64,000 nt of DNA from a virus. The translations under genes and the position numbers were made by a program. Location: the IMG/VR virus record IMGVR_UViG_3300044644_001556, one strand, 5' to 3'. Numbering within the stretch: position 1 is the stretch's first letter; each line of letters begins with the position of its first letter. Below are positions 42,563 through 61,909 of the stretch, piece after piece. The notes below the pieces were generated by a model. It did not search any database and was not told the origin of the DNA. It saw nothing but the letters and a program-made list of their open reading frames with translations.

Positions 42563-42820
42563 TTAATTATATCGTATTGGAACAATAACGAACGTGCGAC
42601 CAGTCTTTAAAATCATTTCTATTAATAATGGATTATCATCGCGAAACATCATATCTGTAATATTTAAATCTACTGGTAGTATATGACGCATAGCTAAAAT
42701 ATTATCGAAAGTGGGTAATATCCAATCTTGATGTCCATTATATTCCAAAAATTGACAATATAATTCAGCTTGGTAATACCCCATGGTTTGATTTGTTAAG
42801 GGTGGGGCATATTCTATCAT
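42563..42820 (-). CDS. DUF1566-like mini-protein
   Basis: MIEYAP...YCQFLEYNGHQDWILPT...PIR. Confidence 0.75.
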   Translation of the reverse strand: MIEYAPPLTNQTMGYYQAELYCQFLEYNGHQDWILPTFDNILAMRHILPVDLNITDMMFRDDNPLLIEMILKTGRTFVIVPIRYN

Positions 42821-42842
42821 AAATTAAAACTACGGAAGTGAC

Positions 42843-43100
42843 TCATTCTTTTATAAATCGTATTTTTGTTAATTTAGTAACAAATGTAGTCGGTCTTAAT
42901 TTAGTAATGCATATAGTTTCTAATTTATCATCAACTGTTATATGACTAATATCGTATTCTCTACCTTTATAATTTGCTATACATCTATAGCCAGATGAAA
43001 TGCGATATGCTTCTTTTTGATATGAATTATATTCATTATTAAAATTATCGACGTCAGTCGAATAAATTTTTTGTTCTTTTATTAAATCTGAAATATTCAT
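42843..43100 (-). CDS. hypothetical protein
   Basis: ORF. Confidence 0.55.
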   Translation of the reverse strand: MNISDLIKEQKIYSTDVDNFNNEYNSYQKEAYRISSGYRCIANYKGREYDISHITVDDKLETICITKLRPTTFVTKLTKIRFIKE

Positions 43101-43108
43101 TGTTTATT

Positions 43109-43318
43109 TTAGTTATCAATTGACCTTACTGGAGTAACGGTAAATTTACCGCGAGTCTGATCATCTAAATACCAACCATAAATTCCGTGAGTATTATGAT
43201 ATTCTTCTTTAGTAGGTAATCGCCAATTATTAAACCCGTCATGATTACAAAAAGTACAATACAATAACGCATCATCATAAGTCATCTCTTTTTCCGTTCT
43301 CGGAGCTTGTATAAACAT
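43109..43318 (-). CDS. DUF1566-like mini-protein
   Basis: MTYDDALLYC.FC...WRLPT..E...PVR. Confidence 0.78.
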   Translation of the reverse strand: MFIQAPRTEKEMTYDDALLYCTFCNHDGFNNWRLPTKEEYHNTHGIYGWYLDDQTRGKFTVTPVRSIDN

Positions 43319-43367
43319 AATTTACCATATAAATTTAGCTCCGCATATTAAGGCGGAGCTAATAACA

Positions 43368-43589
43368 TTAAGCTGCGTCTAATAGTTGTATTTGAATATC
43401 GTTTTTTGCTTCCGCTATATGAGTATCTACGTAATGATCAGCGATTCTCATAATTTGAAATGTATTGATATCGCCTTCTACTTCACCTTCAGTCATTTTT
43501 TCGTAGATAGCGTCTAATAACCAATCACCTAACATTAAATCGTTATCTTTAACTGTTATTGTAGTTACTACTTTATATGTCTTTGCCAT
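43368..43589 (-). CDS. hypothetical protein
   Basis: AAGGA SD, followed by hairpin ttagctccgc/gcggagctaa. Confidence 0.6.
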   Translation of the reverse strand: MAKTYKVVTTITVKDNDLMLGDWLLDAIYEKMTEGEVEGDINTFQIMRIADHYVDTHIAEAKNDIQIQLLDAA

Positions 43590-43637
43590 GTTTTTCCTTT
43601 ACTATTAATTAATCTCAAGTTATTTATATTCGAGTAA

Positions 43638-43871
43638 TTATTGATCGATGCTTATATTTTTATTGCGGACTGGATAAACAACTAACGATAGACCTTTTCG
43701 ATTATATAGACTTTGGCTTTGATTATGCCAACCATGAATTTGAGTATATTCTATCCATTCGGTCCATGTCGGCATTCGCCAATCAGCATATCCATTATAA
43801 TTTAAAAATTGACAATATAATATCGCATCTTCTAATAAAACTAAACCTGATCTAGGAGCTATTTCTATCAT
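43638..43871 (-). CDS. DUF1566-like mini-protein
   Basis: Family motif; ATGA coupling. Confidence 0.78.
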   Translation of the reverse strand: MIEIAPRSGLVLLEDAILYCQFLNYNGYADWRMPTWTEWIEYTQIHGWHNQSQSLYNRKGLSLVVYPVRNKNISIDQ

Positions 43872-44092
43872 GCAGTTCTAATTGGCGTTACTATCCGCAC
43901 AAATCTAACATTAATACTACCCTCGTACCAAATATTAATCATTGATCCTCTACTCTTACTGTTAATATAATAATATTCTTCTTTAGTAGGCATTCGCCAA
44001 TCATTATATCCATTATAATTTAAAAATTGACAATATAATAATGCATCAGCATATACCATTTTATTTTTTGGGGATGGGGCTATTTCTATCAT
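43868..44092 (-). CDS. DUF1566-like mini-protein
   Basis: Family motif; start revised to the ATGA junction. Confidence 0.78.
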   Translation of the reverse strand: MIEIAPSPKNKMVYADALLYCQFLNYNGYNDWRMPTKEEYYYINSKSRGSMINIWYEGSINVRFVRIVTPIRTA

Positions 44093-44295
44093 ATATCTCG
44101 CACCGGAACTATAGCCCAATCCCCATCATCAAATTGAATAATCATCTGACACCAACTTATAATATGATAATCATCACATTCTTTTTTAGTCGGCATTCGC
44201 CAATCATTATGGCCCCGGTATTCTAAAAATTGGCAATATAATATAGCGTTATTATATGTCATTAATTCCGATAATTCTTCCGCTATCTCGATCAT
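44089..44295 (-). CDS. DUF1566-like mini-protein
   Basis: Family motif. Confidence 0.78.
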   Translation of the reverse strand: MIEIAEELSELMTYNNAILYCQFLEYRGHNDWRMPTKKECDDYHIISWCQMIIQFDDGDWAIVPVRDI

Positions 44296-44507
44296 ATATC
44301 ACGAACTGGATTTACCGGAGCTAATAACCCAGGTCGAAACTTCATATCAACCTGCCACCAATGATCATACCCGAGACCATATTCTTTACATTCAGCAAAT
44401 GTCGGTAATCGCCAATCAGTATAACCATTATAATTTAAAAATTGGCAATATAATATTGCATCATCATACGATAATAGTTTTTTACATTTTGGCGCTATTT
44501 CTATCAT
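44292..44507 (-). CDS. DUF1566-like mini-protein
   Basis: Family motif; start at MIEIAP. Confidence 0.75.
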   Translation of the reverse strand: MIEIAPKCKKLLSYDDAILYCQFLNYNGYTDWRLPTFAECKEYGLGYDHWWQVDMKFRPGLLAPVNPVRDI

Positions 44508-44670
44508 TATTTCCAATTGTTACAAAAAATACCTTGATGTAATCTTACAATTCCGTATAAGATATATTTGTAAATTGTCGCCCATAATGGTAATTTGTTA
44601 TTAGTGAAACATAACATTTCGAAATGTTCATATATTGTTTGCATATTTAATTTTCCTTGATATAAATGTA

Positions 44671-44919: not shown

Positions 44920-44928
44920 TTTATTTTC

Positions 44929-45150
44929 CTATTTTATATCTCGAACTGGTGTTATATGTAATTTAAAATCTTTACCGGAATAATGATCTGCATCGTATAA
45001 CCACCCCCATACTTCAATCGTATTTTGATGCCAATCAAACATATTCGGCATCCGCCAATCGGTATACCCATCATACTCTAAAAATCGACAATATAATAAC
45101 GCTTCATCATAAGTCATTTTTTTATCAGCAATCGGAGCTATTTGAATCAT
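44929..45150 (-). CDS. DUF1566-like mini-protein
   Basis: Family motif. Confidence 0.78.
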   Translation of the reverse strand: MIQIAPIADKKMTYDEALLYCRFLEYDGYTDWRMPNMFDWHQNTIEVWGWLYDADHYSGKDFKLHITPVRDIK

Positions 45151-45495: not shown

Positions 45496-45714
45496 TTAAA
45501 TATCCCTTACTGGTACAACATACCAACCATCCGAGTCGTCTTTTAATGCATCATCCAAATACCAAACATCAGATTGATATAAATCAGCATCATCATATTC
45601 TGGTTTCGTTAATAACCGCCAATCGTTATAACCACCGTAAGTACAAAATGCACAATATAAAACTGCATCATCATACGACATTCGATTGTCTGATTTAATT
45701 CCCCATTCTAACAT
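45496..45714 (-). CDS. DUF1566-like mini-protein
   Basis: Family motif (WRLLT variant). Confidence 0.75.
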   Translation of the reverse strand: MLEWGIKSDNRMSYDDAVLYCAFCTYGGYNDWRLLTKPEYDDADLYQSDVWYLDDALKDDSDGWYVVPVRDI

Positions 45715-45968: not shown

Positions 45969-46023
45969 TTTATAGTCTCTTATTAAATTAGTTAATTAAT
46001 ACAACTAATATATTATAATACAG

Positions 46024-46536
46024 CTAATCAATATTATCAATATTTTTATTTGTAACGATAATACACGGCAACCTATCTGAGGGGGCGACCGGTATTTCGT
46101 AATATGAATGATAACTATGCCTACCCATTAGCGCCTCATGCCAAATTATACTAGAACGTTTCGCATCAATTAACGGAATTGAACCGACATAATATTTTTC
46201 TGGTATATCAGCTTTAGTATTACTAATCCAGATAAATCGACCCCGAGGTATATCAGTTCGATTATTATATAAGTTCGTTATTGCGTATATTTCATCATTA
46301 TTAGGTAATCGCCAATCAATATTAAAACAAAGCAATAATTTTACTTCATCATGGGTTAATAAATTATCAATTACCTTATACTCAAGTTTATCATCAATTG
46401 CTAATAAATCATCTATAACTCGTTGTTGAATTGATAATAGCCGGCGTTTATCGTACCAAAACCATAAACTTACAGATAACCATATGATTGCAGTAAGACC
46501 GACTGCAAAAAGACCATGCATAATATTTACCCACAT
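46024..46536 (-). CDS. membrane-anchored divergent DUF1566-like protein
   Basis: N-terminal TM plus LT.DE...DWRLPN..E...W. Confidence 0.6.
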   Translation of the reverse strand: MWVNIMHGLFAVGLTAIIWLSVSLWFWYDKRRLLSIQQRVIDDLLAIDDKLEYKVIDNLLTHDEVKLLLCFNIDWRLPNNDEIYAITNLYNNRTDIPRGRFIWISNTKADIPEKYYVGSIPLIDAKRSSIIWHEALMGRHSYHSYYEIPVAPSDRLPCIIVTNKNIDNID

Positions 46537-47069
46537 TATTGTATAAAATATGGTATATCGCGTTTAGTCCATTTAAATATATGACGCTTTCCGTTATTGT
46601 AATAATTATGGTACGCTTTAACCGAACTACTATCCTTATACTCATCTGGCATGGCGGGTGGAGGCTCACTAAATGCATTTGATGAAATATTAGCAGGCAA
46701 ATTAACTAAATACTTTAATAATCTAGATGAAGCATGTACTTTACCATAACGATACGTATACTCTTCCATTAATTTAACCCACAAATTATACAACCATGTA
46801 TAATTATCACGACTTTGTCTTACCCAGGCACTAGAGGGGTGATTTGTATGCGAATCTTGATATAAATTTTCATTTAATTCTAAATCAGCTAAAACATAAC
46901 GTTTAACTTTTTTACCAGAGTTAGATAATACCTGCATTTGTTCACCATCTAACACTCGATGAGCTACTGATAATAATTGCGCGTATTCTAATATCATTTT
47001 AACGCAATGTTTATCGGTATGATACCGAGCACATAATTCTACATCATGATCTAAATAAAATATATTCAT
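46536..47069 (-). CDS. pyrimidine-dimer DNA glycosylase family protein
   Basis: MNIFYLD...A..H.DKH.VKMILE.AQLLS, H.NHP...W.R, PAMP...AY..YY. Confidence 0.75.
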   Translation of the reverse strand: MNIFYLDHDVELCARYHTDKHCVKMILEYAQLLSVAHRVLDGEQMQVLSNSGKKVKRYVLADLELNENLYQDSHTNHPSSAWVRQSRDNYTWLYNLWVKLMEEYTYRYGKVHASSRLLKYLVNLPANISSNAFSEPPPAMPDEYKDSSSVKAYHNYYNNGKRHIFKWTKRDIPYFIQ

Positions 47070-47208: not shown

Positions 47209-47457
47209 TTAATCGATTATATCTCTTACTGGAATTACTTTGCGACTGGGATGCGGATTAAATGTAAATCTTTTAATATCCGAATACCAACAGAATTTTG
47301 AATTAATTCGAAAATAAATATTCGAGGCACTAGAACAACATTCATCCCACGTCGGTAATCGCCAATCAGTATAACCATTATGAGCACAAAATTGGCAGTA
47401 TACAATCGCCTCTTCATACGTCATATCATCATTAGTTGGAGGAGCTGCTTGTATCAT
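47209..47457 (-). CDS. DUF1566-like mini-protein
   Basis: Family motif. Confidence 0.78.
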   Translation of the reverse strand: MIQAAPPTNDDMTYEEAIVYCQFCAHNGYTDWRLPTWDECCSSASNIYFRINSKFCWYSDIKRFTFNPHPSRKVIPVRDIID

Positions 47458-47459: not shown

Positions 47460-47705
47460 TTACTTAATTTTATTATCAATACCGAATCTTGGTTTATTTA
47501 ACCAAACCACTAGTCTATTCATCGTCGGTTCTAACCAATCCGATATAATAAATAATGCCGCTATTGTATTTAAAATCGGTATAAAACAAAATAACATAAG
47601 TAATATATCAGCTATTGATATATTAACTGGAGGATTTAATTGTTCCTTATATATCCACCAAAACCAGATAATAATTGATGTGATATAGATAATAAGTTCT
47701 ATCAT
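47460..47705 (-). CDS. small membrane protein
   Basis: Two hydrophobic segments. Confidence 0.6.
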   Translation of the reverse strand: MIELIIYITSIIIWFWWIYKEQLNPPVNISIADILLMLFCFIPILNTIAALFIISDWLEPTMNRLVVWLNKPRFGIDNKIK

Positions 47706-48097
47706 TATTTTACTCCAAAGTATTTTAATATTTTAGATTTAACTTCAGGTTGACTTACTAATTTACTACATTCTCGAATTATACTTTCGGCGAACCGCAC
47801 CATATGTTCTTCGGTATATAAATCTAACGGGACATCACTATATTGATAATCCGTGGTAAATGGATTTGGTAAATAATCTCGCATATTATACCTTATACTT
47901 CTTACTGGTACTACATAACACATTGAAGGCCAGGTTCTACCTTCATACCAATGACCAAATAACCCAATTTCATCTGTATTTTCTTGTTCCGTTGGTAAAC
48001 GCCAATCAGTCCATCCACCGCTCGTTAAAAAAGAACAATACAATACGGCATCATCATATGACATTTGCCTATCAGATCTATCTGCAAACTCTAACAT
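47705..48097 (-). CDS. DUF1566-like mini-domain fused to an FAE.II.EC-type domain
   Basis: Family motif, then RFAESIIREC as in 50969..51208. Confidence 0.72.
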   Translation of the reverse strand: MLEFADRSDRQMSYDDAVLYCSFLTSGGWTDWRLPTEQENTDEIGLFGHWYEGRTWPSMCYVVPVRSIRYNMRDYLPNPFTTDYQYSDVPLDLYTEEHMVRFAESIIRECSKLVSQPEVKSKILKYFGVK

Positions 48098-48320
48098 ATA
48101 TATCCCTCACTGGAATCACCTTCAATGCTATTCCAAAATAATCATCCTGATCCGCTCTTCCGAAATACCAACATCCAAAAAATACATTCGAAGTATACCA
48201 TTCATCGAGGCTCGGTAATCGCCAATCAGTATATCCGCCAAATCGACAAAATGTACAATATAATATAGCATCATCATACGTCATTAGATTTTCCGTCTCA
48301 GGCGCAATCTCTATCGTCAT
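48078..48320 (-). CDS. DUF1566-like mini-protein
   Basis: Family motif. Confidence 0.78.
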   Translation of the reverse strand: MTIEIAPETENLMTYDDAILYCTFCRFGGYTDWRLPSLDEWYTSNVFFGCWYFGRADQDDYFGIALKVIPVRDIYVRVCR

Positions 48321-48577: not shown

Positions 48578-48823
48578 CTACACTTTATCTCTTACTGGTG
48601 TAACTGTTAAATTCGACGTAAATTCCATATCGTGATCATCTTGCCCCCATCCTAAACTACCGATTAATCTAGCCTCTGGGATAGTCGGCATCCTCCAATC
48701 TCGATGTCCATTATAATCTAAAAATCGGCAATATAATATTGCTTCGTCATATGACATTGATTTAGAAACAGGCCCTACCTCAAATAAGTCAGGCTCTACA
48801 TTATTATTGTAAATTCTAATCAT
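48578..48823 (-). CDS. DUF1566-like mini-protein
   Basis: Family motif. Confidence 0.78.
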   Translation of the reverse strand: MIRIYNNNVEPDLFEVGPVSKSMSYDEAILYCRFLDYNGHRDWRMPTIPEARLIGSLGWGQDDHDMEFTSNLTVTPVRDKV

Positions 48824-49134
48824 ATCCTTTTATTAAATAAAACATCAATAAACACATTAATTAAATATTTAATATCTCGTTTAAATGAGATTATAGATTC
48901 AATCCAATTCTTTGTTACTCGACACGGACAAACTTGATACTCACCTATACTATGATATCGCTCAATATCAGTATACCAAACCATAATCCGATATTGAACC
49001 CAATCGTTTGTAAATTCACTTATTGTAGGTAATCGCCAATCCGTATGACCATCTTGTTCTAGAAACTGGCAATATATCTTAGCTTCATCGAAAGTCATCT
49101 TATGCTTAGTTATCTGACCCCATTGCAATCTCAT
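48820..49134 (-). CDS. DUF1566-like mini-protein with C-terminal extension
   Basis: Family motif. Confidence 0.75.
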   Translation of the reverse strand: MRLQWGQITKHKMTFDEAKIYCQFLEQDGHTDWRLPTISEFTNDWVQYRIMVWYTDIERYHSIGEYQVCPCRVTKNWIESIISFKRDIKYLINVFIDVLFNKRI

Positions 49135-49352
49135 ATTTTATCTCTCACTGGTGAAGCAAGCATCGTCGGATGTTTACCATTAATCGAGTGCACTCTATTT
49201 AAATACCAGCCAGATAATGATTTAATATTATGATATTCAGCTTCTGTTGGTAAACGCCAATCAGTATAACCTCTAAATCGACAAAATGTACAATATAATA
49301 ACGCTTCGTCATATGTCATTAACCCACTAGATTTAGGAGCGAATTCTAACAT
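49131..49352 (-). CDS. DUF1566-like mini-protein
   Basis: Family motif; start revised. Confidence 0.78.
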   Translation of the reverse strand: MLEFAPKSSGLMTYDEALLYCTFCRFRGYTDWRLPTEAEYHNIKSLSGWYLNRVHSINGKHPTMLASPVRDKI

Positions 49353-49573
49353 ATATCTCTCACTGGTATTACCGTTTGTAGATATAAATGTTTTGGTGCT
49401 CCATACCATTTATTTTCATACCAACAGCCCGCATTGATACCATGGGTTTGCCAAAATTCATCCCAGGTCGGCATCCTCCAATCCGTATAACCATTATGCG
49501 TGCAGAATTGACAATACAATATTGCTTCCGCGTATGTCATCTGACCGTTCGATTCGGGAGCTGATTCTATCAT
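49346..49573 (-). CDS. DUF1566-like mini-protein
   Basis: Family motif; start revised to MIESAP. Confidence 0.78.
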   Translation of the reverse strand: MIESAPESNGQMTYAEAILYCQFCTHNGYTDWRMPTWDEFWQTHGINAGCWYENKWYGAPKHLYLQTVIPVRDIC

Positions 49574-50123: not shown

Positions 50124-50339
50124 TTAATCAACTATTATATCTCTTACTGGTATTATAGGATATCTAAATTCGCGGGATGATGGGTCATTTAAATGCCATC
50201 CGATGCTATCGCAATATATTCGCCATTCTTCTTTAGTAGGCATCCGCCAATCCTTATAACCAGCATGATTGCAAAATGCACAATATAATAATGCATCTTC
50301 GTATAATAAATGGTTTGATTTCGGTGCTATTTCTATCAT
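50124..50339 (-). CDS. DUF1566-like mini-protein
   Basis: Family motif. Confidence 0.78.
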   Translation of the reverse strand: MIEIAPKSNHLLYEDALLYCAFCNHAGYKDWRMPTKEEWRIYCDSIGWHLNDPSSREFRYPIIPVRDIIVD

Positions 50340-50542
50340 ATATCTCTTACCGGTACAATTAAATGATTTCCTTCAGCATATAACCGATTAATATACCAGC
50401 CGACAACATCATCATTTATAAACCAATCCGCGACAGTCGGCATCCGCCAGTCAATATGCCCATTATAAGTACAGAAGTGACAATATAATATCGCTTCATT
50501 ATATGTCATTAAACCGTTAGATTTAGGCGCTAATTCTATCAT
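50336..50542 (-). CDS. DUF1566-like mini-protein
   Basis: Family motif; start revised. Confidence 0.78.
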   Translation of the reverse strand: MIELAPKSNGLMTYNEAILYCHFCTYNGHIDWRMPTVADWFINDDVVGWYINRLYAEGNHLIVPVRDI

Positions 50543-50751
50543 ATATCTCTCACTGGTATTACCATCCAAGCTGTTAGATTAAATGTTGGATCTCGATCTA
50601 AATACCATCCAACTAAACCTGGCGAATCTTTCCATTCTTTATATGTCGGTAAACGCCAATCTTGATGTCCATTATAGTCTAGAAATTGACAATATAATAC
50701 GGCTTCATCATATGATAAATTAATTCGCGATCCTGGGGCCTGCTCTATCAT
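50539..50751 (-). CDS. DUF1566-like mini-protein
   Basis: Family motif; start revised. Confidence 0.78.
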   Translation of the reverse strand: MIEQAPGSRINLSYDEAVLYCQFLDYNGHQDWRLPTYKEWKDSPGLVGWYLDRDPTFNLTAWMVIPVRDI

Positions 50752-50963
50752 ATATCCCTCACCGGCGATACCCACCATAAGTAATCTTCAGCATTTACAC
50801 TCCATCTAGCAGACCGATCTATATACCAACAATTTAATGATTTATATTCAGCCCATGTCGGTAAACGCCAATCAGTATAGCCTTTATATGTACAGAATCG
50901 GCAATATAATATCGCTTCATCATAAGTCATCTTATTCTTAGATATAGGAGCGGTTTGTATCAT
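50748..50963 (-). CDS. DUF1566-like mini-protein
   Basis: Family motif. Confidence 0.78.
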   Translation of the reverse strand: MIQTAPISKNKMTYDEAILYCRFCTYKGYTDWRLPTWAEYKSLNCWYIDRSARWSVNAEDYLWWVSPVRDI

Positions 50964-51982: not shown

Positions 51983-52011
51983 ATTATACTACTAATAAAC
52001 ATAATTGTCAA
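51983..52011 (-). promoter_or_regulatory. consensus sigma70 promoter
   Basis: TTGACA-17-TATAAT. Confidence 0.7.
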
Positions 52012-52298
52012 ACCACATCTCTTACTGCTCGAACAAAATAGCGGACACTCTTGGGAGTGGGATACTGAGTGCCTGACATACTCTGATATAATGCACCGTA
52101 ACCGCCATCGGTCTCAGTAGACGACCAGTAACCTAAACCAACTAAATCGTTTTCTAATTGATATATTTCTTTTAATTCATCTGTGGTTGGCAATCGCCAA
52201 TCATTCTTCCCATCTATGGCTAGAAATGAACAATATAGTTTAGCATCATCCCAATTAGCAATAATCTCTGTTTCTTTAGGTGCTATTTTAAAATTCAT
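52008..52298 (-). CDS. DUF1566 protein with VR-like C-terminus
   Basis: NWDDAK.YC...WRLPT..EL..IY...YWSSTE...FVRAVR. Confidence 0.82.
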   Translation of the reverse strand: MNFKIAPKETEIIANWDDAKLYCSFLAIDGKNDWRLPTTDELKEIYQLENDLVGLGYWSSTETDGGYGALYQSMSGTQYPTPKSVRYFVRAVRDVV

Positions 52299-52636
52299 GA
52301 TAAACTCCGAACTGCTCTAACATAGCTGCTAGAATCCTTACTATTGTAGCCTTGATTACCATGCAACATACCCTGCTTCCAAGCACCCCAACCATCGACC
52401 TCAACCGCGGACCAGTAATATGAATCAATGAAATCATGTTCCGAATTATAGATCTGGGTTAATTCTTCTAATGTAGGTAACCTCCAATCTCTATGACCAT
52501 CTATTTCTAGAAATGAACAATATAAATTAGCTTCGGTCCAGTCGGCTTTTATCTCGGTCGATTTAGGCGCTATATCTATAGTAATAACAAATACCAAGTT
52601 TGTACTCTGAAACTTTAATCTACCTATTTCTATCAT
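52295..52636 (-). CDS. DUF1566 protein with VR-like C-terminus
   Basis: YWS..E....AW.Q....G.Q....K....YVRAVR. Confidence 0.82.
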   Translation of the reverse strand: MIEIGRLKFQSTNLVFVITIDIAPKSTEIKADWTEANLYCSFLEIDGHRDWRLPTLEELTQIYNSEHDFIDSYYWSAVEVDGWGAWKQGMLHGNQGYNSKDSSSYVRAVRSLS

Positions 52637-52862: not shown

Positions 52863-53068
52863 ATATCTCTCACCGGAGTTACTAAGAATTTATCGATCGG
52901 TTTAAATTGATTCTTTTTAACATACCACCCGTGAGTCACATATGGATTACTATATTCTTCCTTAGTAGGCATACGCCAATCTCGATATCCATTATAATCT
53001 AAGAATGTGCAATATATTACAGCTTCCTCGTATGTTAGCATCGGAGATATTGGCGCAAATTCTATCAT
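52859..53068 (-). CDS. DUF1566-like mini-protein
   Basis: Family motif; start revised. Confidence 0.78.
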   Translation of the reverse strand: MIEFAPISPMLTYEEAVIYCTFLDYNGYRDWRMPTKEEYSNPYVTHGWYVKKNQFKPIDKFLVTPVRDI

Positions 53069-53319
53069 ACATCTCTCACTGGTATAACAAAATTTACATC
53101 CCTTACTGGTATAACGAAACATATCCCATCAAAATCATCACCTAAATACCAACTTGAGTAACCATCTAATGCAAAATAATACTCATCTGCATTCGGTAAC
53201 CGCCAATTACGATATCCATTATGCTGACAAAATGCACAATATAATAATGCATCACCATACGTCATTTCATTTTCAGATCTTGGAGCCGCCTCAATATTGA
53301 AATCAGCTAGCTCTATCAT
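53065..53319 (-). CDS. DUF1566-like mini-protein with duplicated ends
   Basis: MIELADFNIEAAP...VIPVRDVNFVIPVRDV. Confidence 0.78.
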   Translation of the reverse strand: MIELADFNIEAAPRSENEMTYGDALLYCAFCQHNGYRNWRLPNADEYYFALDGYSSWYLGDDFDGICFVIPVRDVNFVIPVRDV

Positions 53320-53534: not shown

Positions 53535-53740
53535 ATATCTCTCACCGGAACCGCATACCATAACAACTGAGATGCACTTCCATTGTACCACGCATTTAAA
53601 CCAATATGCGAACCGTTAATATATTCAGCCCACGTAGGTAATCGCCAATTACTATACCCATCCCAGCCGCAAAATACACAATATAATATTGCGTCTTCAT
53701 ACGTCATTTCATTTTCGGATCTTGGGGCATACACTATCAT
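53531..53740 (-). CDS. DUF1566-like mini-protein
   Basis: Family motif. Confidence 0.78.
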   Translation of the reverse strand: MIVYAPRSENEMTYEDAILYCVFCGWDGYSNWRLPTWAEYINGSHIGLNAWYNGSASQLLWYAVPVRDI

Positions 53741-53994
53741 ATATCTCTCACCGGTATCAACCAGAATTTAAGAAAATTCGGATACTGATTCTTAACTCCC
53801 CATGATTCTAACGACCATATATTATCAATATAAATTTCATTATCTCCGTATACTATCGGACATACTTCTAAAAGTTCTTGATAATTAGGTAACCGCCAAC
53901 CAGTAACTCCGTCAATAACAATAAAATTAACAACCAAGGTCATATCATTGTTATTTAATTTCCGCCAATACTGATTATCGCTAATTTCTATCAT
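53737..53994 (-). CDS. divergent DUF1566-like mini-protein
   Basis: GWRLPN..EL...PVRDI. Confidence 0.7.
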   Translation of the reverse strand: MIEISDNQYWRKLNNNDMTLVVNFIVIDGVTGWRLPNYQELLEVCPIVYGDNEIYIDNIWSLESWGVKNQYPNFLKFWLIPVRDI

Positions 53995-54218: not shown

Positions 54219-54593
54219 TTATTTTACATACATTTTACGATTACCAATAGACGATACGAAATACTTAGCAAATGATTTCGATGACATATTAGCTTTAGCT
54301 CTCGATACCGAAACATCTAAATAAAAATACCCTTCGGTTTCATCCATAAAGTCTTTAAGATCGTAATCAAACTTCGACATAATAGCAGCCTTTGAAAATT
54401 CAATTCGAGCACCCTTTACATCCGCATATACAGGTTCGAACTTATCAATCTGCTGCTCTTCAATTACGTCTAATAACTCTTGCTTATATACAGCAACTTC
54501 CTTTTCTAATATCTTGATCTCTTCCATCAATAATGCCATCTTAGAAAATTTTGCTAACTGTTCTTCTGATAATAAATTTGTGATATTTGCCAT
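54219..54593 (-). CDS. hypothetical protein, paralog of 643..999
   Basis: Shared C-terminal motif; AAGGA SD. Confidence 0.7.
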   Translation of the reverse strand: MANITNLLSEEQLAKFSKMALLMEEIKILEKEVAVYKQELLDVIEEQQIDKFEPVYADVKGARIEFSKAAIMSKFDYDLKDFMDETEGYFYLDVSVSRAKANMSSKSFAKYFVSSIGNRKMYVK

Positions 54594-54638
54594 GATTGTT
54601 ATCCTTTATTTAAATTGGTTAATTAATACAACAAATAT

Positions 54639-54667
54639 ATTATATGATATTACTGCTATTAAGTCCA
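54639..54667 (-). promoter_or_regulatory. early promoter (TGGACT variant)
   Basis: TGGACT-17-TATAAT plus ATATTTGTTGTAT. Confidence 0.7.
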
Positions 54668-55528: not shown

Positions 55529-55571
55529 TTTATAACCCCTTATATAATTAGTTAATTAATACAACAAAGAT

Positions 55572-55600
55572 ATTATAATACAATCTGACCTTTAGATCCA
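55572..55600 (-). promoter_or_regulatory. early promoter (TGGATC variant)
   Basis: TGGATC-17-TATAAT plus leader. Confidence 0.65.
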
Positions 55601-55648: not shown

Positions 55649-56767
55649 CTATTGTGTTCGAACCGCTCTAACATAAAATTTATATAATGTAGCTGACGTA
55701 TATGAACTCTGCTTTGATTTAAACCAACATTGTACCGATGCAGTTCCGTATTTACTTTTTACTTGTTCACCCCAGTAAATATCGTTATACTCATCCATCA
55801 ATTTATATTTAGAACTAGATTGAATAGTCGCTAAATTTTTAATCATCAATTCCATTTCGTCTTTAGTTGGTAACCGCCAATCATTATGACCACCATAAGT
55901 TAGATTATTACAATATTCATCTGCTTCTGGCCATGTTAATTGTTTTTGAGTCTCTATAGGACTCAATATCAAAGTCTTACCGTCAATCTCACCTACTACT
56001 AAACCACCACCTTGCTCTACCTTTTTTGTTGGTTTTAAATGTGGCTTATCTGTATACACCTTATTTAAAATAAGATCGATCTTTTTGATATATTTTGTTG
56101 AAGTAAAGAACCCTTGCGATTTTTCTCCATCATGAATAACGCCGGTTTGTTGTGGTTCACTTATATATGCATAACCTAATTGTCTTAATATAATATTAGT
56201 ATCAACGGTTTGGGTATCCTTAGTTACATTAACGACCTTTTGTGTCTCAGGATTAACTGCCTTCACCGGCTGTCTATTCGGATTTAATTTAGGTATGAAA
56301 TGTATTAAATGCCAAAATGAATCAAACGTATTAACCATCCCGAACGCGTTTTTCTCATTCATGATTTTATAACCAGCATCAACATCATATCCCAATTTCC
56401 GCAATTTAGTTTCATCGGCCCGCATATCATCCATCGTATACTTTGAGATATCTGATATAAATCGCTGACCCTGCCCGTTATATTTAATAACATGTATATA
56501 CGGCATACTAGCTCCGTATGTAAATGTTTTTGATAAATCTGAGGTTTCGTTTAATTTATACTGTTCCCAAAATGTTTTTAATGGGTAAAAATATATCCCA
56601 ATCGGCGTAGTCCATGAGCTTTTTGGATATACCCCAAGTTTGATAATAGGTGAAAAATGTATAAAAATATTTGGATCATCTTTATACTTCATTAATTGCT
56701 GTGCTGCAGATACCCGTAAGTTCTGTTCTGGATTTCGTCGAGCTTCGAATAACTCACTTAATTTCAT
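55649..56767 (-). CDS. MKLSELFE-tagged protein with C-terminal DUF1566 domain, late-promoter gene
   Basis: LTWPEA..YC..L.YGGHNDWRLPT..E...YW...YVRAVR; TATAAATA at 56795-56802. Confidence 0.78.
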   Translation of the reverse strand: MKLSELFEARRNPEQNLRVSAAQQLMKYKDDPNIFIHFSPIIKLGVYPKSSWTTPIGIYFYPLKTFWEQYKLNETSDLSKTFTYGASMPYIHVIKYNGQGQRFISDISKYTMDDMRADETKLRKLGYDVDAGYKIMNEKNAFGMVNTFDSFWHLIHFIPKLNPNRQPVKAVNPETQKVVNVTKDTQTVDTNIILRQLGYAYISEPQQTGVIHDGEKSQGFFTSTKYIKKIDLILNKVYTDKPHLKPTKKVEQGGGLVVGEIDGKTLILSPIETQKQLTWPEADEYCNNLTYGGHNDWRLPTKDEMELMIKNLATIQSSSKYKLMDEYNDIYWGEQVKSKYGTASVQCWFKSKQSSYTSATLYKFYVRAVRTQ

Positions 56768-56805: not shown

Positions 56806-57039
56806 CTAAATATTGATCTTCGTATCCACTAATACATCTCTTACTGGTTGAATAGTCCATTTATCTAGGGGACGCCAACTTGTACTTTCATACCAACCAA
56901 ATATATTACCGCTCATACTATATTCTTCCGGTGTAGCCATACGCCAATCAGTATATCCATTATAATCACAAAATCGACAATATAATATCGCCTCACTATA
57001 TGTCATTTTTTTTTCTGATATTGGAGCTAATTCTATCAT
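56806..57039 (-). CDS. DUF1566-like mini-protein
   Basis: Family motif; start revised. Confidence 0.78.
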   Translation of the reverse strand: MIELAPISEKKMTYSEAILYCRFCDYNGYTDWRMATPEEYSMSGNIFGWYESTSWRPLDKWTIQPVRDVLVDTKINI

Positions 57040-57302
57040 ACATCCCTTACCGGACAAACCTTCCAGTTCGTATTATAATCAAACTTATCTATATGCCTAT
57101 TAACATACCATCCAGTAAGCCCCAGATTCGTACTATATTCATCCCGAGTAGGCATCCGCCAATCAGTATATCCATTATGCGTACAAAATCGACAATATAA
57201 TACTGCTTCTTCATATGGCATACCATTCACCGACTTTGGAGCTATTTCTATAATATATCCATCACTTGTGAAACCTTTCAGTGGTTGAGTAAATGTTATC
57301 AT
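57036..57302 (-). CDS. DUF1566-like mini-protein with N-terminal junction relic
   Basis: Family motif; start revised. Confidence 0.75.
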   Translation of the reverse strand: MITFTQPLKGFTSDGYIIEIAPKSVNGMPYEEAVLYCRFCTHNGYTDWRMPTRDEYSTNLGLTGWYVNRHIDKFDYNTNWKVCPVRDV

Positions 57303-57505
57303 ATATCCCGCACTGGGGTTACACACCACATGTAATCTGTTTTACGATCAATATACCAACTCCAACTAAAGTTGTACAGTCTCCACTCTTCAATTGTCGG
57401 CATTCGCCAATCTCTACGCTCGTTACACTCTAAGAATCGACAATATAATATTGCTTCACCATAAGTCATTTCAATTTCGGATCTCGGGGCGAATTCAATA
57501 TTCAT
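57299..57505 (-). CDS. DUF1566-like mini-protein
   Basis: Family motif; start revised. Confidence 0.78.
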   Translation of the reverse strand: MNIEFAPRSEIEMTYGEAILYCRFLECNERRDWRMPTIEEWRLYNFSWSWYIDRKTDYMWCVTPVRDI

Positions 57506-57711
57506 ATGTCTCTCACCGGCATTACATAATCTTCCCAATACGATGACGGATCATTTAAATACCACATAGTATAAATCGCCAAATACTCACATTCGTCCCG
57601 TGTTGGCAACCTCCAATCGGTATTACCATTATGGTTACAAAATGTACAATATAATAACGCCTCTTCATACGTCATCTCTTTTTCTGATGTTGGTGCTGAT
57701 TCAATATTCAT
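57502..57711 (-). CDS. DUF1566-like mini-protein
   Basis: Family motif; start revised. Confidence 0.78.
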   Translation of the reverse strand: MNIESAPTSEKEMTYEEALLYCTFCNHNGNTDWRLPTRDECEYLAIYTMWYLNDPSSYWEDYVMPVRDI

Positions 57712-57926
57712 ATATCTCTCACTGGACAAACGATCCGTCTACCAGTCATTGCATCATTATACCAACCCGTATTCCAACAACCTGTTACTATTTCATCTTC
57801 CGCAAAATATTCATCTTTAGTGGGTAACCGCCAATCGGTATAATCATCGTGCTGACAAAAGGTACAATATAATATTGCTTCGCTATATGTCATTTCTTTT
57901 TCTGATATTGGAGCTAATGCTAACAT
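57708..57926 (-). CDS. DUF1566-like mini-protein
   Basis: Family motif. Confidence 0.78.
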   Translation of the reverse strand: MLALAPISEKEMTYSEAILYCTFCQHDDYTDWRLPTKDEYFAEDEIVTGCWNTGWYNDAMTGRRIVCPVRDI

Positions 57927-58144
57927 ATATCCCTCACAGGCGTGACATGATCTAAGATGTACTGTAATCCACTGTATGCCCTATCATTTTCGGACCATCC
58001 ACGCGTACTCACGTGCTCCAGTAATTCAGCGCTTGTAGGTAATCGCCAATCATTATGATCGCCGTGTCTACAAAACGCACAATATAATACAGCGTCATTA
58101 TACCGCAACATCCGACGGGGACCTGGTGCGACTTCAATATTCAT
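57920..58144 (-). CDS. DUF1566-like mini-protein
   Basis: Family motif; start revised. Confidence 0.78.
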   Translation of the reverse strand: MNIEVAPGPRRMLRYNDAVLYCAFCRHGDHNDWRLPTSAELLEHVSTRGWSENDRAYSGLQYILDHVTPVRDIC

Positions 58145-58356
58145 ACATCCCTCACCGGAGTTACCCACGATGCGTAACATACCGTTCGATCAATATACCA
58201 ATCTCCAACTCTAGCGTCATGATATGCATTAGATGAGTATTCATCCCGCGTAGGCATTCTCCAATCTCTATGCCCATTATATTCAAGAAATTGACAATAT
58301 AATATTGCTTCTTCATATGTCATATAGTTTTTAGATCTAGGAGCTACTTCTAACAT
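58141..58356 (-). CDS. DUF1566-like mini-protein
   Basis: Family motif; start revised. Confidence 0.78.
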   Translation of the reverse strand: MLEVAPRSKNYMTYEEAILYCQFLEYNGHRDWRMPTRDEYSSNAYHDARVGDWYIDRTVCYASWVTPVRDV

Positions 58357-58559
58357 GCATCCCTCACCGGCACTACATACCAAAGCTGCTCAGTATTTAG
58401 ATCAATAAACCAACTGCATGATCGGGTACATATTAAGTAATATTCATCCAGTGTCGGTAATCGCCAATCTCGGTGTCCGTTGTAATCTAAGAATGTACAA
58501 TATAGTATAGCTTCTTCATATGCCATTTCTTGGGCGGACATTGGGGCTACTTCTATCAT
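58350..58559 (-). CDS. DUF1566-like mini-protein
   Basis: Family motif; start revised. Confidence 0.78.
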   Translation of the reverse strand: MIEVAPMSAQEMAYEEAILYCTFLDYNGHRDWRLPTLDEYYLICTRSCSWFIDLNTEQLWYVVPVRDAC

Positions 58560-58756
58560 ATACTTCTCACCGGTACTACGCTCCATATTCCACTCTCAGG
58601 ATCATTTAAATACCAACAATGCATATTATTACTCGAATACTCATCTTCAACTGGTAAACGCCAATCCTTATGACCACCATAATCTAAAAATTGACAATAT
58701 AATAAGGCTTCACCATACGTCATAACGTTTTTTGATCTTGGCGCAAATTCTATCAT
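58556..58756 (-). CDS. DUF1566-like mini-protein
   Basis: Family motif. Confidence 0.78.
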   Translation of the reverse strand: MIEFAPRSKNVMTYGEALLYCQFLDYGGHKDWRLPVEDEYSSNNMHCWYLNDPESGIWSVVPVRSI

Positions 58757-58956
58757 ACAGTCCTCACCGGTGTAACATTACGAGTATTGAAACCTCCTTT
58801 CCTATCAACAAACCACCCAGAGAGACCTGTAGTATCAAGGTATTCACTACTCGTCGGCATACGCCAATCTCTATGCCCATTGTATTCGAGAAATTGACAA
58901 TATAATATTGCTTCTTCATATGACATTACTTTAGATGGTGGTGCTTTCTCTATCAT
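58753..58956 (-). CDS. DUF1566-like mini-protein
   Basis: Family motif. Confidence 0.78.
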   Translation of the reverse strand: MIEKAPPSKVMSYEEAILYCQFLEYNGHRDWRMPTSSEYLDTTGLSGWFVDRKGGFNTRNVTPVRTV

Positions 58957-58966
58957 AACACTTCGA

Positions 58967-59266: not shown

Positions 59267-59346
59267 AAATTCTCCTATTGTAGTTAAATTCTTAGCTGCT
59301 TCATATATTATAGCTCAAATATAAGCTGATTGCAAGTACTATACTA

Positions 59347-59634
59347 TCATATATCCCTTACAGCACGCACGTAGTGGCCGCTATAGTCCTTATCGTCGAA
59401 GCCCACGTAGCTATTAGTTAGATTCTGAATCCAGGCGCCGTCGCTATCATCATCAGTAGAGGACCAGTAGTAGTCATTAGTAAAATTATTTTTAGATTGG
59501 TATATCTCATGCAATTCTTCTATTGTAGGCAATCTCCAACCTTTCTTTCCAGCTACTTCTAAAAAGGTACAATATATCTTAGCATCATACCAGTTAGCTT
59601 TGATTGCTGTTTCTTTAGGCGCTATTTCAAACAT
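59347..59634 (-). CDS. DUF1566 protein with VR-like C-terminus
   Basis: YYWSSTDDDSDGAWIQNL...K....YVRAVR; GC-rich NNY codons. Confidence 0.85.
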   Translation of the reverse strand: MFEIAPKETAIKANWYDAKIYCTFLEVAGKKGWRLPTIEELHEIYQSKNNFTNDYYWSSTDDDSDGAWIQNLTNSYVGFDDKDYSGHYVRAVRDI

Positions 59635-59855
59635 ACGTCTCTCACAGGCACTACAGATAAAAATATACCATCATTTTTAATATTAACGTCATCGCACCAC
59701 CAGGACATCAACTGAATATGATCCAAATTTATCCATTCCTCTTCGGTTGGCATACGCCAATCTCTATAACCATCATACTCCAGAAATTGACAATATAATA
59801 ATGCGTCATCATATGTCATTAGATTCTCTGTCTCAGGCGCAATCTCTACCGTCAT
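59622..59855 (-). CDS. DUF1566-like mini-protein
   Basis: Family motif; N-terminus nearly identical to 48078..48320. Confidence 0.78.
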   Translation of the reverse strand: MTVEIAPETENLMTYDDALLYCQFLEYDGYRDWRMPTEEEWINLDHIQLMSWWCDDVNIKNDGIFLSVVPVRDVCLK

Positions 59856-59886
59856 AATGCATACCATGTTTTGTTACAACAAAGAT

Positions 59887-59915
59887 ATTATAACTCATAC
59901 TTGATAATAGATCAA
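59887..59915 (-). promoter_or_regulatory. early promoter
   Basis: TTGATC-17-TATAAT plus leader. Confidence 0.7.
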
Positions 59916-59984
59916 GTACTATTGTACATCTTTTACCGAACCATACTTACTTGTTTATACCTGTAGTAATTTACTTTATAATAA

Positions 59985-60266
59985 TTAACATACTAACGCC
60001 ATTGACCTTTGGGATATAGTAGCTATTGCTATCGTATATTCATCATTAGACATATCCCTCACCGGACAAACTTCACGCCAAACTTTACTAACACCCACCC
60101 TATCAATATACCACCCGACTCTAGAGTTAAGCAATTCCTCGGAGAAATATTCATCAAACGTAGGCATTCGCCAATCATTATGCCCATCGTGTCTACAAAA
60201 TACGCAATATAATATTGCTTCTTCATATGGCATTATAATTCCAGATCTAGGTGCTACTGCTATCAT
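59985..60266 (-). CDS. DUF1566-like mini-protein
   Basis: Family motif. Confidence 0.78.
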   Translation of the reverse strand: MIAVAPRSGIIMPYEEAILYCVFCRHDGHNDWRMPTFDEYFSEELLNSRVGWYIDRVGVSKVWREVCPVRDMSNDEYTIAIATISQRSMALVC

Positions 60267-60478
60267 ACATCCCTTACCGGCGTCACTGTGTGTTTGACGT
60301 ACATTATTAATGGGATGGAATTATTATGCCATCCCCATATGTTATATCGATAATCACTCCACTCTTCTTTCGTCGGCATTCGCCAGTCCGTATGACCATT
60401 ATAGGTACAAAATTGACAATATAATATTGCTTCTTCATATGCCATTTCGTTTTTAGATATTGGTGCAAATTGTATCAT
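60263..60478 (-). CDS. DUF1566-like mini-protein
   Basis: Family motif; start revised. Confidence 0.78.
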   Translation of the reverse strand: MIQFAPISKNEMAYEEAILYCQFCTYNGHTDWRMPTKEEWSDYRYNIWGWHNNSIPLIMYVKHTVTPVRDV

Positions 60479-60702
60479 ACATCCCTCACCGGTAATACGT
60501 AATAAGCTAACCAAGGTATTAACATTCCGGTATGCCAACATCTAGCTGTTCGAACTTGATCAACATACATCTGCCAATAATGGTATTCTTCTGTAGTAGG
60601 TATTCTCCAATCTCTGTGACCATTATATTCTAAAAATTGACAATATAATATAGCCTCATCGTGATATAGATAGTTATTAAATACTGGCGCATATTCTAAC
60701 AT
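60475..60702 (-). CDS. DUF1566-like mini-protein
   Basis: Family motif; start revised. Confidence 0.78.
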   Translation of the reverse strand: MLEYAPVFNNYLYHDEAILYCQFLEYNGHRDWRIPTTEEYHYWQMYVDQVRTARCWHTGMLIPWLAYYVLPVRDV

Positions 60703-60899
60703 ACCTCCCTCACTGGCACTACGGTGTACTGACCGCTTGCAGGATCGTTTAAATACCATCCAGAAATATCAAACTCGTAATATTCATCAAATGTAGTCAT
60801 TCGCCAATCCCTATGTCCATTATAATCACAAAATGAACAGTATAATATCGCTTCATCATATGTCATATACTTTTCTGATCTTGGTGCAAATTCTATCAT
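60696..60899 (-). CDS. DUF1566-like mini-protein
   Basis: Family motif; start revised. Confidence 0.78.
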   Translation of the reverse strand: MIEFAPRSEKYMTYDEAILYCSFCDYNGHRDWRMTTFDEYYEFDISGWYLNDPASGQYTVVPVREVC

Positions 60900-61105
60900 A
60901 CATCCCTCACCGGGCAAACTTTCCATTTTGATACCCACTCACTACTTCTACAGACATACCATCCAGAAATACCTATAACATCCATATATTCAGCTCGATC
61001 AGGTAATCGCCAATCCCGATGCCCGTTATAATCTAAAAATGCACAATATAATACAGCTTCTTCATACGTCATTTCGTGATCGGATATTGGGGCTACTTCT
61101 AACAT
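60896..61105 (-). CDS. DUF1566-like mini-protein
   Basis: Family motif; start revised. Confidence 0.78.
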   Translation of the reverse strand: MLEVAPISDHEMTYEEAVLYCAFLDYNGHRDWRLPDRAEYMDVIGISGWYVCRSSEWVSKWKVCPVRDV

Positions 61106-61201
61106 ATATCTCTCGGTGTATATTGGTAAACTCAATGCTCTTACACTATCGGAGTAAGTATACTCCCGAGTTGATTTAATTTGTAAAAGATTATTGGTAT
61201 A

Positions 61202-61909
61202 TTAAATACTCCGAACTGCGCGAACATAGTTGCCGTTAAACTTATTACCATGCCCCTGATAGCCGTCGGACATATCCTGTCTCCAAGCGCCATTACTAAC
61301 GCCCTCAGTACCCGACCAGTAGTTGTCCTTAATAAAATCATTATTAGATTCATAGATTTGATTTAATTCTTTTTTAGTTGGTAATCTCCAGCCATCTCCT
61401 AATGATTTTACATATTCAACAGCTTCATACCAAGTCATCATTTTTTCCGGCGACCGTGTCGCAATTTCAAACGGCAAGGTTGGGTTTTGTTTAACTATAT
61501 CTCTTACTGCTCTAACGTAGGCGCTGTAACCCTTGAAGAAGTTGAACTGATTGCCATCGGACAAATTCTGACCCCAGGCGCCGTCGCCACTGCCCTCTGT
61601 AGACGACCAGTAGTAGTCCTTAGTAAAATCATTTTCAGAATTATATATTTCATGCAATTCTTCAATAGTCGGAAGACGCCATCCTTCTCCTAACGATTCA
61701 ATATATGCAACCGCATCATTCCAATTCATCTTTTTTGTTGTAGCTTTATCAGCAATTTCAAATGGTAAATCTGATTTGTATTTTATCATGATAGGTTTTA
61801 CAACATCTAAATTTAACTGCAGTAATTTGATAAATTCTTCCACTTGTTCTCTGGAAATATTATTAACCGCATCCCAGGAATAAGTTTCTGATTTTCTAAT
61901 ATTAAACAT
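61202..61909 (-). CDS. tandem two-domain DUF1566 protein, both domains with VR-like C-termini
   Basis: 2x LPFEIA...M.W..AV.Y..SLG.GWRLPT..EL..IY...YWS.TE...AW.Q....G.Q....K....YVRAVR. Confidence 0.88.
   Translation of the reverse strand: MFNIRKSETYSWDAVNNISREQVEEFIKLLQLNLDVVKPIMIKYKSDLPFEIADKATTKKMNWNDAVAYIESLGEGWRLPTIEELHEIYNSENDFTKDYYWSSTEGSGDGAWGQNLSDGNQFNFFKGYSAYVRAVRDIVKQNPTLPFEIATRSPEKMMTWYEAVEYVKSLGDGWRLPTKKELNQIYESNNDFIKDNYWSGTEGVSNGAWRQDMSDGYQGHGNKFNGNYVRAVRSI

Follow-up and report, generated by a model that had tools for sequence, protein, structure and literature searches.

The DNA analysed here is a window of 64,000 nt from the virus record IMGVR_UViG_3300044644_001556 (IMG/VR), belonging to a large uncultured freshwater phage. 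It carries tandem arrays of very short genes, the products of which, here called minis, are related to the Lcl_C/DUF1566 domain (Pfam PF07603). Dozens of minus-strand open reading frames (ORFs) at 42-64 kb encode the pattern MIE.AP....MTY.EA.LYC.F..Y.G..DWR(L/M)PT..E...W...V.PVRD, and a strict regular expression retrieved 52 copies in the window. A profile built from the window's own copies identified 62 stop-to-stop ORFs with 63 significant domains, on the minus strand throughout. They comprised 48 ORFs (49 domains) at 42563-61909 and 14 more diverged ORFs at 1238-41880. The total reproduces exactly the count of an initial annotation made from the sequence alone, which had also placed about 48 copies between 42.5 and 62 kb. 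Lengths in this block were 66-88 amino acids (aa) for 39 of the 48 copies, and 33 fell within the 66-80 aa that had been quoted for most of them. Family genes make up 61% of the block and 25% of the window, and the array corresponds to about 11% of the 144.8-kb contig (144,806 bp) bearing the window's proteins. All 62 reading frames are open. The lack of signal peptides, likewise claimed at first, was borne out, as no hydrophobic stretch of that kind was present and the mean Kyte-Doolittle value over 12 N-terminal residues peaked at 1.62. The minis are mildly acidic (median isoelectric point 5.1) and rich in aromatic residues. This multigene family is a real, selected sequence feature, robust and strongly supported.

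The family contains a long and a mini form. Copies of about 95 aa, marked as full-length in Table 1, are complete Lcl_C domains and scored 43-95 bits on PF07603, above the gathering cut-off of 34.9 bits. The minis (66-88 aa) reached 23.6-24.7 bits, below the cut-off, and aligned to profile positions 19-54 of 117 only, so the Pfam search proposed in the initial annotation came out positive for the long copies and negative for the minis. The homology of the two forms is drawn from the window's own profile, because a profile built from minis matched the long copies at E of about 1e-22. By this profile evidence the minis are a truncated offshoot homologous to Lcl_C and not standard members of PF07603. 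The long copy at 59347-59634 matched the C-terminal domain of Legionella pneumophila Lcl (Lcl-CTD, 8q4e) by phmmer with E 9.8e-5. Its AlphaFold model had a mean predicted local distance difference test (pLDDT) of 91.8, and the top Foldseek match was again 8q4e (E 1.2e-6, template modelling score 0.76, 32% identity). Snake-venom lectins, Bd2740, intimin and EgtB came next. Strands after helix 2 of this model lie at residues 55-61, 66-71, 77-81, 87-89 and 92-94. The complete lectin-like fold, including the central strands (S5-S9 of Lcl-CTD), was obtained for the long form and not for the minis.

The mini at 60263-60478 was modelled with 34 paralogs as alignment (pLDDT 91.6, predicted template modelling score 0.77). 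The model consists of the first and last strands, two helices and a loop segment of about 25 residues to which the invariant W50 serves as anchor, while the strands found at residues 55-81 of the long form are absent. When it was compared exhaustively with 48,161 PDB chains by VIA-align, all of the 50 top matches were C-type-lectin-like domains. The Z values were 6.5 for MPXV A35R and for the Bdellovibrio fibre tip Bd2740, 6.3 for the aggrecan Link module, 6.2 for Lcl-CTD 8q4e (70 of 71 residues aligned), 6.1 for TvpA and 4.2 for Mtd, the last two being variable proteins of diversity-generating retroelements (DGRs). These values, all below 8, are modest in absolute terms, as expected for 71 residues. 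The mini profile gave insignificant matches only against PDB sequences (E >0.3), and Foldseek against PDB and BFVD returned nothing at E <=0.001 for the mini model, with lectin-like domains and phage DUF1566 proteins in the weak rows. For the model the lectin-fold assignment is nevertheless considered safe, because the top list is uniform and the true homolog 8q4e is among the matches. The mini is thus predicted with confidence to be a compact C-type-lectin-like core without the central beta-sheet, for which the earlier term "stripped-down" is accurate. The initial annotation had named the absence of a predicted DUF1566 or C-type-lectin-like fold as evidence against its proposal; such a fold was predicted for both forms. 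A homotrimer prediction with three mini copies (paralog alignment A1) gave a score of 0.01 against a mark of 0.42, an outcome that speaks neither for nor against a trimer.

Residues conserved in DUF1566 lie mostly in the core of Lcl and include an Arg-Glu salt bridge, Arg338-Glu344 (PMC11162425). The counterparts in the minis, R33 and E39, are conserved. In the WR(L/M)PT..E columns of the 34 cleanest minis W32 and R33 are invariant and P35 and E39 at least 90% conserved, and these columns are invariant too in a joint alignment of long and mini forms.

Family genes are arranged in runs (Table 1) of 10, 7, 5, 4, 4, 4, 2, 2, 2 and 2 genes. Within runs the stop codon overlaps the next start by 4-7 nt, mostly as ATGA. 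The junction consensus CCrGTGAGrGATrTATGATA encodes P-V-R-D-I/V-stop and at the same time places a GAGG/GAGA Shine-Dalgarno site ahead of the next copy's ATG, meaning that the conserved PVRD codons (CCr GTG AGr GAT) double as the ribosome-binding site of the neighbour. The Arg of PVR is written with an AGR codon in 25 of 29 copies with an overlapping downstream gene, versus 12 of 25 without one (p 0.0035). The AGR background in other genes is 39%, and the invariant Arg of DWR is mostly CGN. This bias, together with the junction layout, is a signature of translational coupling. In one copy, 53065-53319, the C-terminal motif is doubled (…FVIPVRDV NFVIPVRDV) by a 27-nt tandem duplication of the segment bearing the next gene's ribosome-binding site.

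Table 1. Features of the mini-lectin arrays in the 64-kb window. L040 is a sequence from a related phage.
Position	Strand	Feature	Evidence and remarks
61946..61985	minus	Promoter and leader motif	TGGACA, 17-nt spacer, TATAAT, then ATATTTGTTGTAT, AAGGA site, ATG
530-546, 7618-7634, 11593-11609, 18162-18178, 46001-46017, 54628-54644, 55561-55577, 59876-59892, 61946-61962	minus	Promoter-motif sites, the last being that of 61946..61985	
within 62205-63661	minus	Five more promoter-motif sites	
61202..61909	minus	235-aa protein with two full-length Lcl_C/DUF1566 domains, one in each half; first gene behind the promoter at 61946, heads the largest operon	PF07603 95 bits, two stretches; two family-profile matches
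59894..61945	minus	2-kb segment between two promoter copies, with the two-domain gene and 5 minis	Absent from L040 (blastn synteny)
59985..61105	minus	Run of 5 coupled minis: 60896-61105, 60696-60899, 60475-60702, 60263-60478, 59985-60266	Family profile 87-109 bits; stop/start overlaps 4-7 nt; copy 60263-60478 folded, pLDDT 91.6
59347..59855	minus	Mini 59622-59855 with its own promoter at 59876, then 95-aa full-length Lcl_C copy 59347-59634	Pfam 58.3 bits (long copy)
56806..58956	minus	Run of 10 coupled minis, 66-88 aa each	Family profile, overlaps
55649..56767	minus	372-aa protein with C-terminal full-length Lcl_C domain; N-terminal part without assigned identity	Pfam 47.7 bits, residues 273-370; kept in L040
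52641..54215	minus	Run of 7 coupled copies including divergent 85-aa copy 53737-53994; downstream of promoter 54628 and 124-aa gene 54219-54593	Family profile, overlaps
52008..52597	minus	Two full-length Lcl_C copies, 96 and about 100 aa (52008-52298, 52295-52597)	Family profile E 4e-23, 9e-23; Pfam 43.5 bits for 52008-52298
50124..50963	minus	Run of 4 coupled minis	L040 orthologs 92-99% protein identity
47705..49573	minus	Runs of 4 (48578-49573) and 2 (47705-48320); two copies with C-terminal extensions (104, 130 aa)	
43638-44507	minus	Run of 4	Family profile
42563-42820, 43109-43318, 44929-45150, 45496-45714, 47209-47457	minus	Single copies	Family profile
46024-46536	minus	Weak divergent member with membrane-like N-terminus	Only 15.7 bits, membership uncertain
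1238..41880	minus	14 dispersed, longer (74-133 aa), more diverged members; stop-inclusive low ends 1238, 4344, 11981, 13054, 14008, 16167, 16411, 17436, 18193, 19352, 20324, 32414, 38438, 41443	Family-profile E 1e-22 to 3e-4; chosen start codons uncertain for several

A promoter element recurs in front of the arrays, in its full form (G)GCTGGACA or TTGACA, a 17-nt spacer, TATAAT, ATATTTGTTGTAT.A.TTAAC, an AAGGA site and ATG. The core was matched 14 times in the window against 0.65 expected by chance, and all 14 matches were on the minus, i.e., gene, strand. Several sites scored 11-12 out of 12 in a sigma70 scan. Family operons are headed directly by the sites at 61946, 59876, 54628, 46001 and 18162, as had been proposed for several clusters; the others head small genes without assigned function. 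From the consensus character of these promoters, host sigma70 RNA polymerase probably transcribes the family genes early. In one metatranscriptome (Logan contigs), short contigs covered four family-gene stretches and carried the single-nucleotide polymorphisms of the same study's DNA run; contigs fell in 12 of 30 bins, and the uncovered bins carry no meaning. The contigs are weakly compatible with transcription. The 20 conserved nucleotides of the leader that follow the -10 box could act as a regulatory RNA or as a site for a protein. More than 20 further small genes of 58-153 aa without Pfam matches, spaced by about 80 nt, lie upstream of the arrays in L040:1669-9933, which is related to the DNA past the high end of the window; they resemble an extended early-type region of mini-genes with single promoters.

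The sequence variation among copies is confined to a small part of the protein. In the 34 cleanest minis A17, Y20, C21, F23, W32, R33, W50 and R69 are invariant, ten further residues are at least 90% conserved, and entropy exceeds 3 bits only at residues 41-48 and 52-64. These two loops also vary in length, loop 1 from 4 to 15 and loop 2 from 9 to 17 residues. Across paralogs the loops share 9.6% protein and 32% DNA identity, the random level, versus 58% and 67% for the scaffold. The variable part is the positional equivalent of the DGR-diversified region in full-length lectin-fold targets, situated before the conserved last strand. The division into a conserved scaffold and a copy-specific segment, and the placing of the latter at the ligand-binding end, hence stand as first described. 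Synonymous variation is saturated, with every codon in use, at the four-fold sites of the invariant Ala, Pro, Gly and Arg columns; therefore it is the protein that is conserved, and the copies are old. Even the two most similar paralogs share only 70% DNA identity. For the paralog scaffold the ratio of nonsynonymous to synonymous substitution rates (dN/dS) was 0.27, and for the loops, which are saturated and cannot be aligned between paralogs, this ratio is meaningless.

Selection on the loops was instead assessed on 14 reciprocal-best ortholog pairs from three relatives found via the protein database (L035, L036 and L040). The proportions of nonsynonymous (pN) and synonymous (pS) differences were 0.059 and 0.238 in the scaffold (pN/pS 0.25, p 1e-23), and 0.057 and 0.122 in the loops (pN/pS 0.47, p 0.01). 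Several orthologs had 0 changes across 20-23 loop codons. Between related phages, purifying selection acts on the scaffold and on the loops alike. It follows from the loop ratio and the unchanged orthologs that the loops of each copy are kept, that the family is not decaying and that existing copies are not hypermutating. Neutral decay and uniform variability had both been named beforehand as outcomes contrary to the proposal, and the data gave purifying selection and variation in two loops.

These results bear on two explanations in which the loops would have no part. According to the first, the arrays would serve to raise gene dosage, or their copies would redundantly perform a single function of the scaffold, such as binding of a common ligand or a chaperone-like activity, with loops that merely drifted. 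The scaffold is indeed the most conserved part, and copy number varies freely between close relatives. The loops of individual copies are nevertheless kept between related phages, several without a single change, and the paralogs, despite their age, are all intact, while dosage amplification normally yields near-identical copies. We regard this explanation as distinctly unlikely. The second, that the copies are non-functional duplicates or selfish repeats in neutral decay, could draw on altered C-termini in a few copies (59985-60266, 48820-49134 and 47705-48097) and on the doubled end at 53065-53319. It is contradicted by the 62 open frames of 62 and the strong purifying selection. Start codons, ribosome-binding sites and coupling are conserved as well, and the family persists in divergent sister phages, so that decay is hardly credible.

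A different question is how the loop diversity was written. DUF1566 is a recognised class of DGR targets (PMC5758913, PMC4159848), which speaks for a retroelement as the author of the mini loops, as do the full-length copies at 59347-61909, with G+C-rich 3' ends in which Asn, Asp, Gly, Ser and Tyr codons are frequent (alignment A2). All other evidence points the other way. No RVT_1 match was found in five sister records (two complete, three partial), in a search where control genomes gave matches, and no reverse transcriptase was present among the window ORFs of at least 298 aa. A near-identical repeat pair was not found in the window. Since the mini loops differ in length and their DNA is 32% identical, no single template is possible. 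Within the loops, third codon positions favour A/T as in the rest of the genome, with 10% C and no NNC bias, and the loops are stable between strains. A DGR origin of the mini loops is accordingly judged most improbable, and the remark in the initial annotation that the domain is a common DGR target does not apply to the minis. The G+C-rich 3' parts of the full-length copies (59347-59505, 61202-61360 and 61493-61651), which are rich in Asn, Asp, Gly, Ser, Tyr and Phe codons, resemble DGR variable regions and could be an old DGR footprint. The L036 ortholog of 59347-59634 is 94% identical including the 3' part, with no sign of current mutagenesis.

Comparison with relatives revealed a rapid turnover of units. 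The flanks in L040 are 92-94% identical to the window, and by blastn synteny the interval between these conserved flanks holds 33 family ORFs in the window versus about 19 in L040. In the interval homologous to the run of ten, L040 has only 4 copies; it lacks the unit 53744-53988, and it has three long copies at a place where the window has one. At a finer scale, a contig from DNA run X17 jumps from 52851 to 53058, with 12 identical nt at the joint, and thereby omits precisely one unit of 206 nt (52862-53068). This skip has a side of 84 nt; other joints, with sides mostly <30 nt in the repeat-rich region, were disregarded. From these differences in copy number, the arrays expand and contract like an accordion, by unequal crossing-over among units and among promoter repeats. 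The origin by gene duplication that had been assumed is supported in its tandem form. In addition, orthologs had diverged more at synonymous sites of the scaffold than at those of the loops (0.238 vs 0.122, p 0.0013), and in two orthologs the first 105 nt were nearer to other window paralogs than to the positional partner, with loops 85-92% identical. This pattern in the sequences fits an exchange of scaffolds between paralogs by gene conversion.

The family is not peculiar to this phage. The initial annotation had named no other phage expansion of a stripped-down form on this scale, and had asked for its copy number in related pmoC phages. Family matches were found in five IMG/VR records of sister huge phages, 23-47 in each, and two complete genomes of 372 kb hold 47 and 45. 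A pmoC gene is present in two of the five records (G001 and G005) and absent from one complete genome (G002). Because only two of the five array-bearing records carry pmoC, the family is a trait of the phage clade and not of pmoC carriage. Near-identical DNA recurred in lakes and estuaries, in about 19 metagenomes that 18 studies dated 2016-2025 had produced. Window copies had a median best identity of 51% among themselves versus 40-42% to the copies of distant relatives, which suggests, at the level of sequence, a lineage-specific expansion or homogenisation. The mini profile matched 280 small proteins in a word-indexed protein database and 5,958 cluster representatives in an exhaustive search, in which full-length matches were proteins of 66-100 aa and very large multi-repeat proteins matched the N-terminal half only. 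Among the latter, giant proteins of 3,600-5,900 aa (P0121-P0124 and others) contain 10-18 repeats matching only the N-terminal scaffold half of the mini, and presumably represent surface proteins of cells in which DUF1566 domains are repeated in tandem. A tblastn search of the mini against 50,697 GenBank phage records gave no match, and megablast of the window against GenBank phages gave tRNA-sized matches only. In the literature searched, including the paper on pmoC phages, DUF1566 arrays or this family are not mentioned, and no phage case with some 60 copies of a 70-aa domain was found. With the minis, a known domain occurs in a truncated, stand-alone form and on a scale not described for phages in the literature searched.

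As to function, we consider two places of action. The minis could be extracellular or virion adhesin modules, mounted on fibre or capsid or released at lysis, which recognise varied surface glycans or receptors and make the virion multivalent or heterogeneous, with a broad host range. The structural neighbours that have been characterised are all surface or receptor-binding domains (Lcl-CTD, Bd2740, Mtd, TvpA, invasin, poxvirus A33/A35), and a protein of the virion can do without a signal peptide. Two other products of the window are candidate virion parts as well, i.e., a 945-aa protein with nine FN3 repeats and the 372-aa protein with a C-terminal Lcl_C domain. The mini genes, however, lie among small ORFs with sigma70-type promoters, near NAMPT, pmoC and RNA ligase and not near morphogenesis genes. 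The residues conserved across copies are positions of the fold core (PMC11162425), so no shared docking surface is evident, and sixty separate adhesins of 70 aa are without precedent. This leaves the adhesin role doubtful.

Soluble, intracellular, early proteins are favoured because export signals are lacking, the proteins are small, acidic and aromatic-rich, the promoters are of sigma70 type and the neighbours are auxiliary and small genes. A repertoire of distinct binding specificities is favoured because a fixed core is combined with copy-specific, selected loops. The chances seem to us about even that the minis constitute a germ-line repertoire of early intracellular binders for host take-over or counter-defence. 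The sequences themselves show that an Lcl_C/DUF1566 domain was cut down to a core of about 70 residues, retaining the terminal strands, two helices, the WR...E salt-bridge motif and the anchoring Trp, with two loops in place of the central beta-sheet. The stripped gene was multiplied in tandem to about 60 copies, in arrays which grow, shrink and turn mosaic by unequal recombination between units and between promoter repeats. According to the proposed reading, the soluble leaderless products would be made early, probably from transcripts of the host sigma70 RNA polymerase. Each mini may bind a different ligand through its two loops, and jointly they may form a fixed set of binders inside the infected cell, serving take-over or counter-defence across varied host strains. 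The repertoire would then be the hard-wired counterpart of DGR mutagenesis on the same end of the same fold. In its most specific form, which we put forward only tentatively, a clade of huge freshwater phages keeps 25-60 minimal binders of fixed, selected specificity, reshuffled by gain and loss of units and by gene conversion, and expressed early in the cell, where they would neutralise variable host defence or regulatory proteins or their small-molecule signals.

Several observations weigh against an intracellular repertoire. The characterised relatives of the fold (Lcl, Mtd, TvpA, invasin, poxvirus A33 and Link modules) all act outside the cytoplasm. PADLOC gave no matches, and PHROGs only matches to families without known function. 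The early timing comes solely from the likeness of the promoters to the sigma70 consensus, and carried-over DNA could explain the contigs of the RNA library too. A methanotrophic host is suggested by pmoC only. Finally, the alignment behind the mini model held paralogs only, and the loops are its least confident part (mean pLDDT 73 over residues 51-60). The original interpretation is thus partly supported: the fold, the duplication, the loops, the lack of signal peptides and the promoters stood, the role as cytoplasmic binders aimed at host defence or regulation stays a proposal, and an expansion peculiar to this phage and the DGR remark for the minis did not stand.

The known systems closest to the minis differ from them in several respects. 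Lcl-CTD (Legionella pneumophila, PF07603, 8q4e) shares the A..Y(C).F...G..DWRLPT..E motif and the Arg/Glu pair with the family and has, like it, a C-type-lectin-like fold without disulfides or Ca2+ motifs; the 95-aa copies of the window are ordinary members of this group. The minis have lost about 25 residues corresponding to the central beta-sheet and are stand-alone, leaderless proteins of about 70 aa in some 60 phage copies. Lcl itself is a secreted, trimeric, collagen-stalked adhesin that binds glycosaminoglycans (PMC11162425). The DGR variable proteins (Mtd 1yu0, TvpA 2y3c and the DUF1566 class; PMC5758913) have the same fold (Z 6.1 for TvpA, 4.2 for Mtd), and, as in the minis, their diversity lies in the same C-terminal ligand-binding part; a phage setting is common to both as well. 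For the minis neither reverse transcriptase nor template nor adenine signature was found, and they are fixed genes with loops of variable length instead of one mutating gene. Poxvirus A33/A35 (OPG161) and the Link module (TSG-6, LYVE-1, aggrecan G1) were the best mini matches (Z 6.3-6.5, root-mean-square deviation 1.9-2.6 over 60-64 residues) and are, like the minis, lectin folds without the long loop region. They are, however, only 8-12% identical to the mini, extracellular, disulfide-bonded and eukaryotic or poxviral, so the likeness is one of shape only.

The remainder of the window encodes a pmoC/AmoC protein at 22663-23421 (E 1e-120), an RNA ligase and a helicase. A pair of NAD+ salvage genes, NAMPT and an NMNAT/Nudix fusion, lies within 3062-5656, and both the pair and pmoC are on the same strand as the arrays. 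There are 12 tRNA genes at 22133-26815. At the end of this cluster, 26739-26815, ARAGORN reported a tRNA-like gene with the four-base anticodon aaca; a tRNA of the frameshift-suppressor type, a pseudo-tRNA and a tRNA mimic are possible readings of it. The 945-aa protein (28362-31199) with its nine FN3 repeats is encoded by a tandem DNA repeat of 270-279 nt, the copies of which are 63-86% identical, and is possibly a virion surface or decoration protein. Pfam searches of the non-family genes interspersed in the arrays gave nothing informative except a DenV-like DNA-binding protein at 46536-47069.

Viral gene arrays that are resized by recombination are known as "genomic accordions" in poxviruses and giant viruses, where tandem arrays of ankyrin, BTB/kelch or K3L genes are thought to serve host range and counter-defence. 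Those arrays differ from the present ones in belonging to eukaryotic viruses and in encoding other folds and much larger proteins. Phages diversify lectin-fold receptor-binding proteins by retroelement mutagenesis, and large eukaryotic viruses expand families of host-interaction genes. Some 60 fixed variants of a lectin core of about 70 residues, each with selected loops, would add to these two a third means by which a virus can maintain diverse binders, and here it comes with a clear gene-expression architecture and rapid birth-and-death dynamics. The minimal scaffold, in which two variable loops are carried by a disulfide-free core of about 45 residues, may be of interest for protein engineering. 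If the targets are host defence proteins, the arrays would be a catalogue of small natural inhibitors and a record of the host diversity met by phages of the methane cycle. If the proposed function is true, the repertoire would be the phage counterpart of an innate-immune receptor family, a hard-wired alternative to DGR hypermutation.

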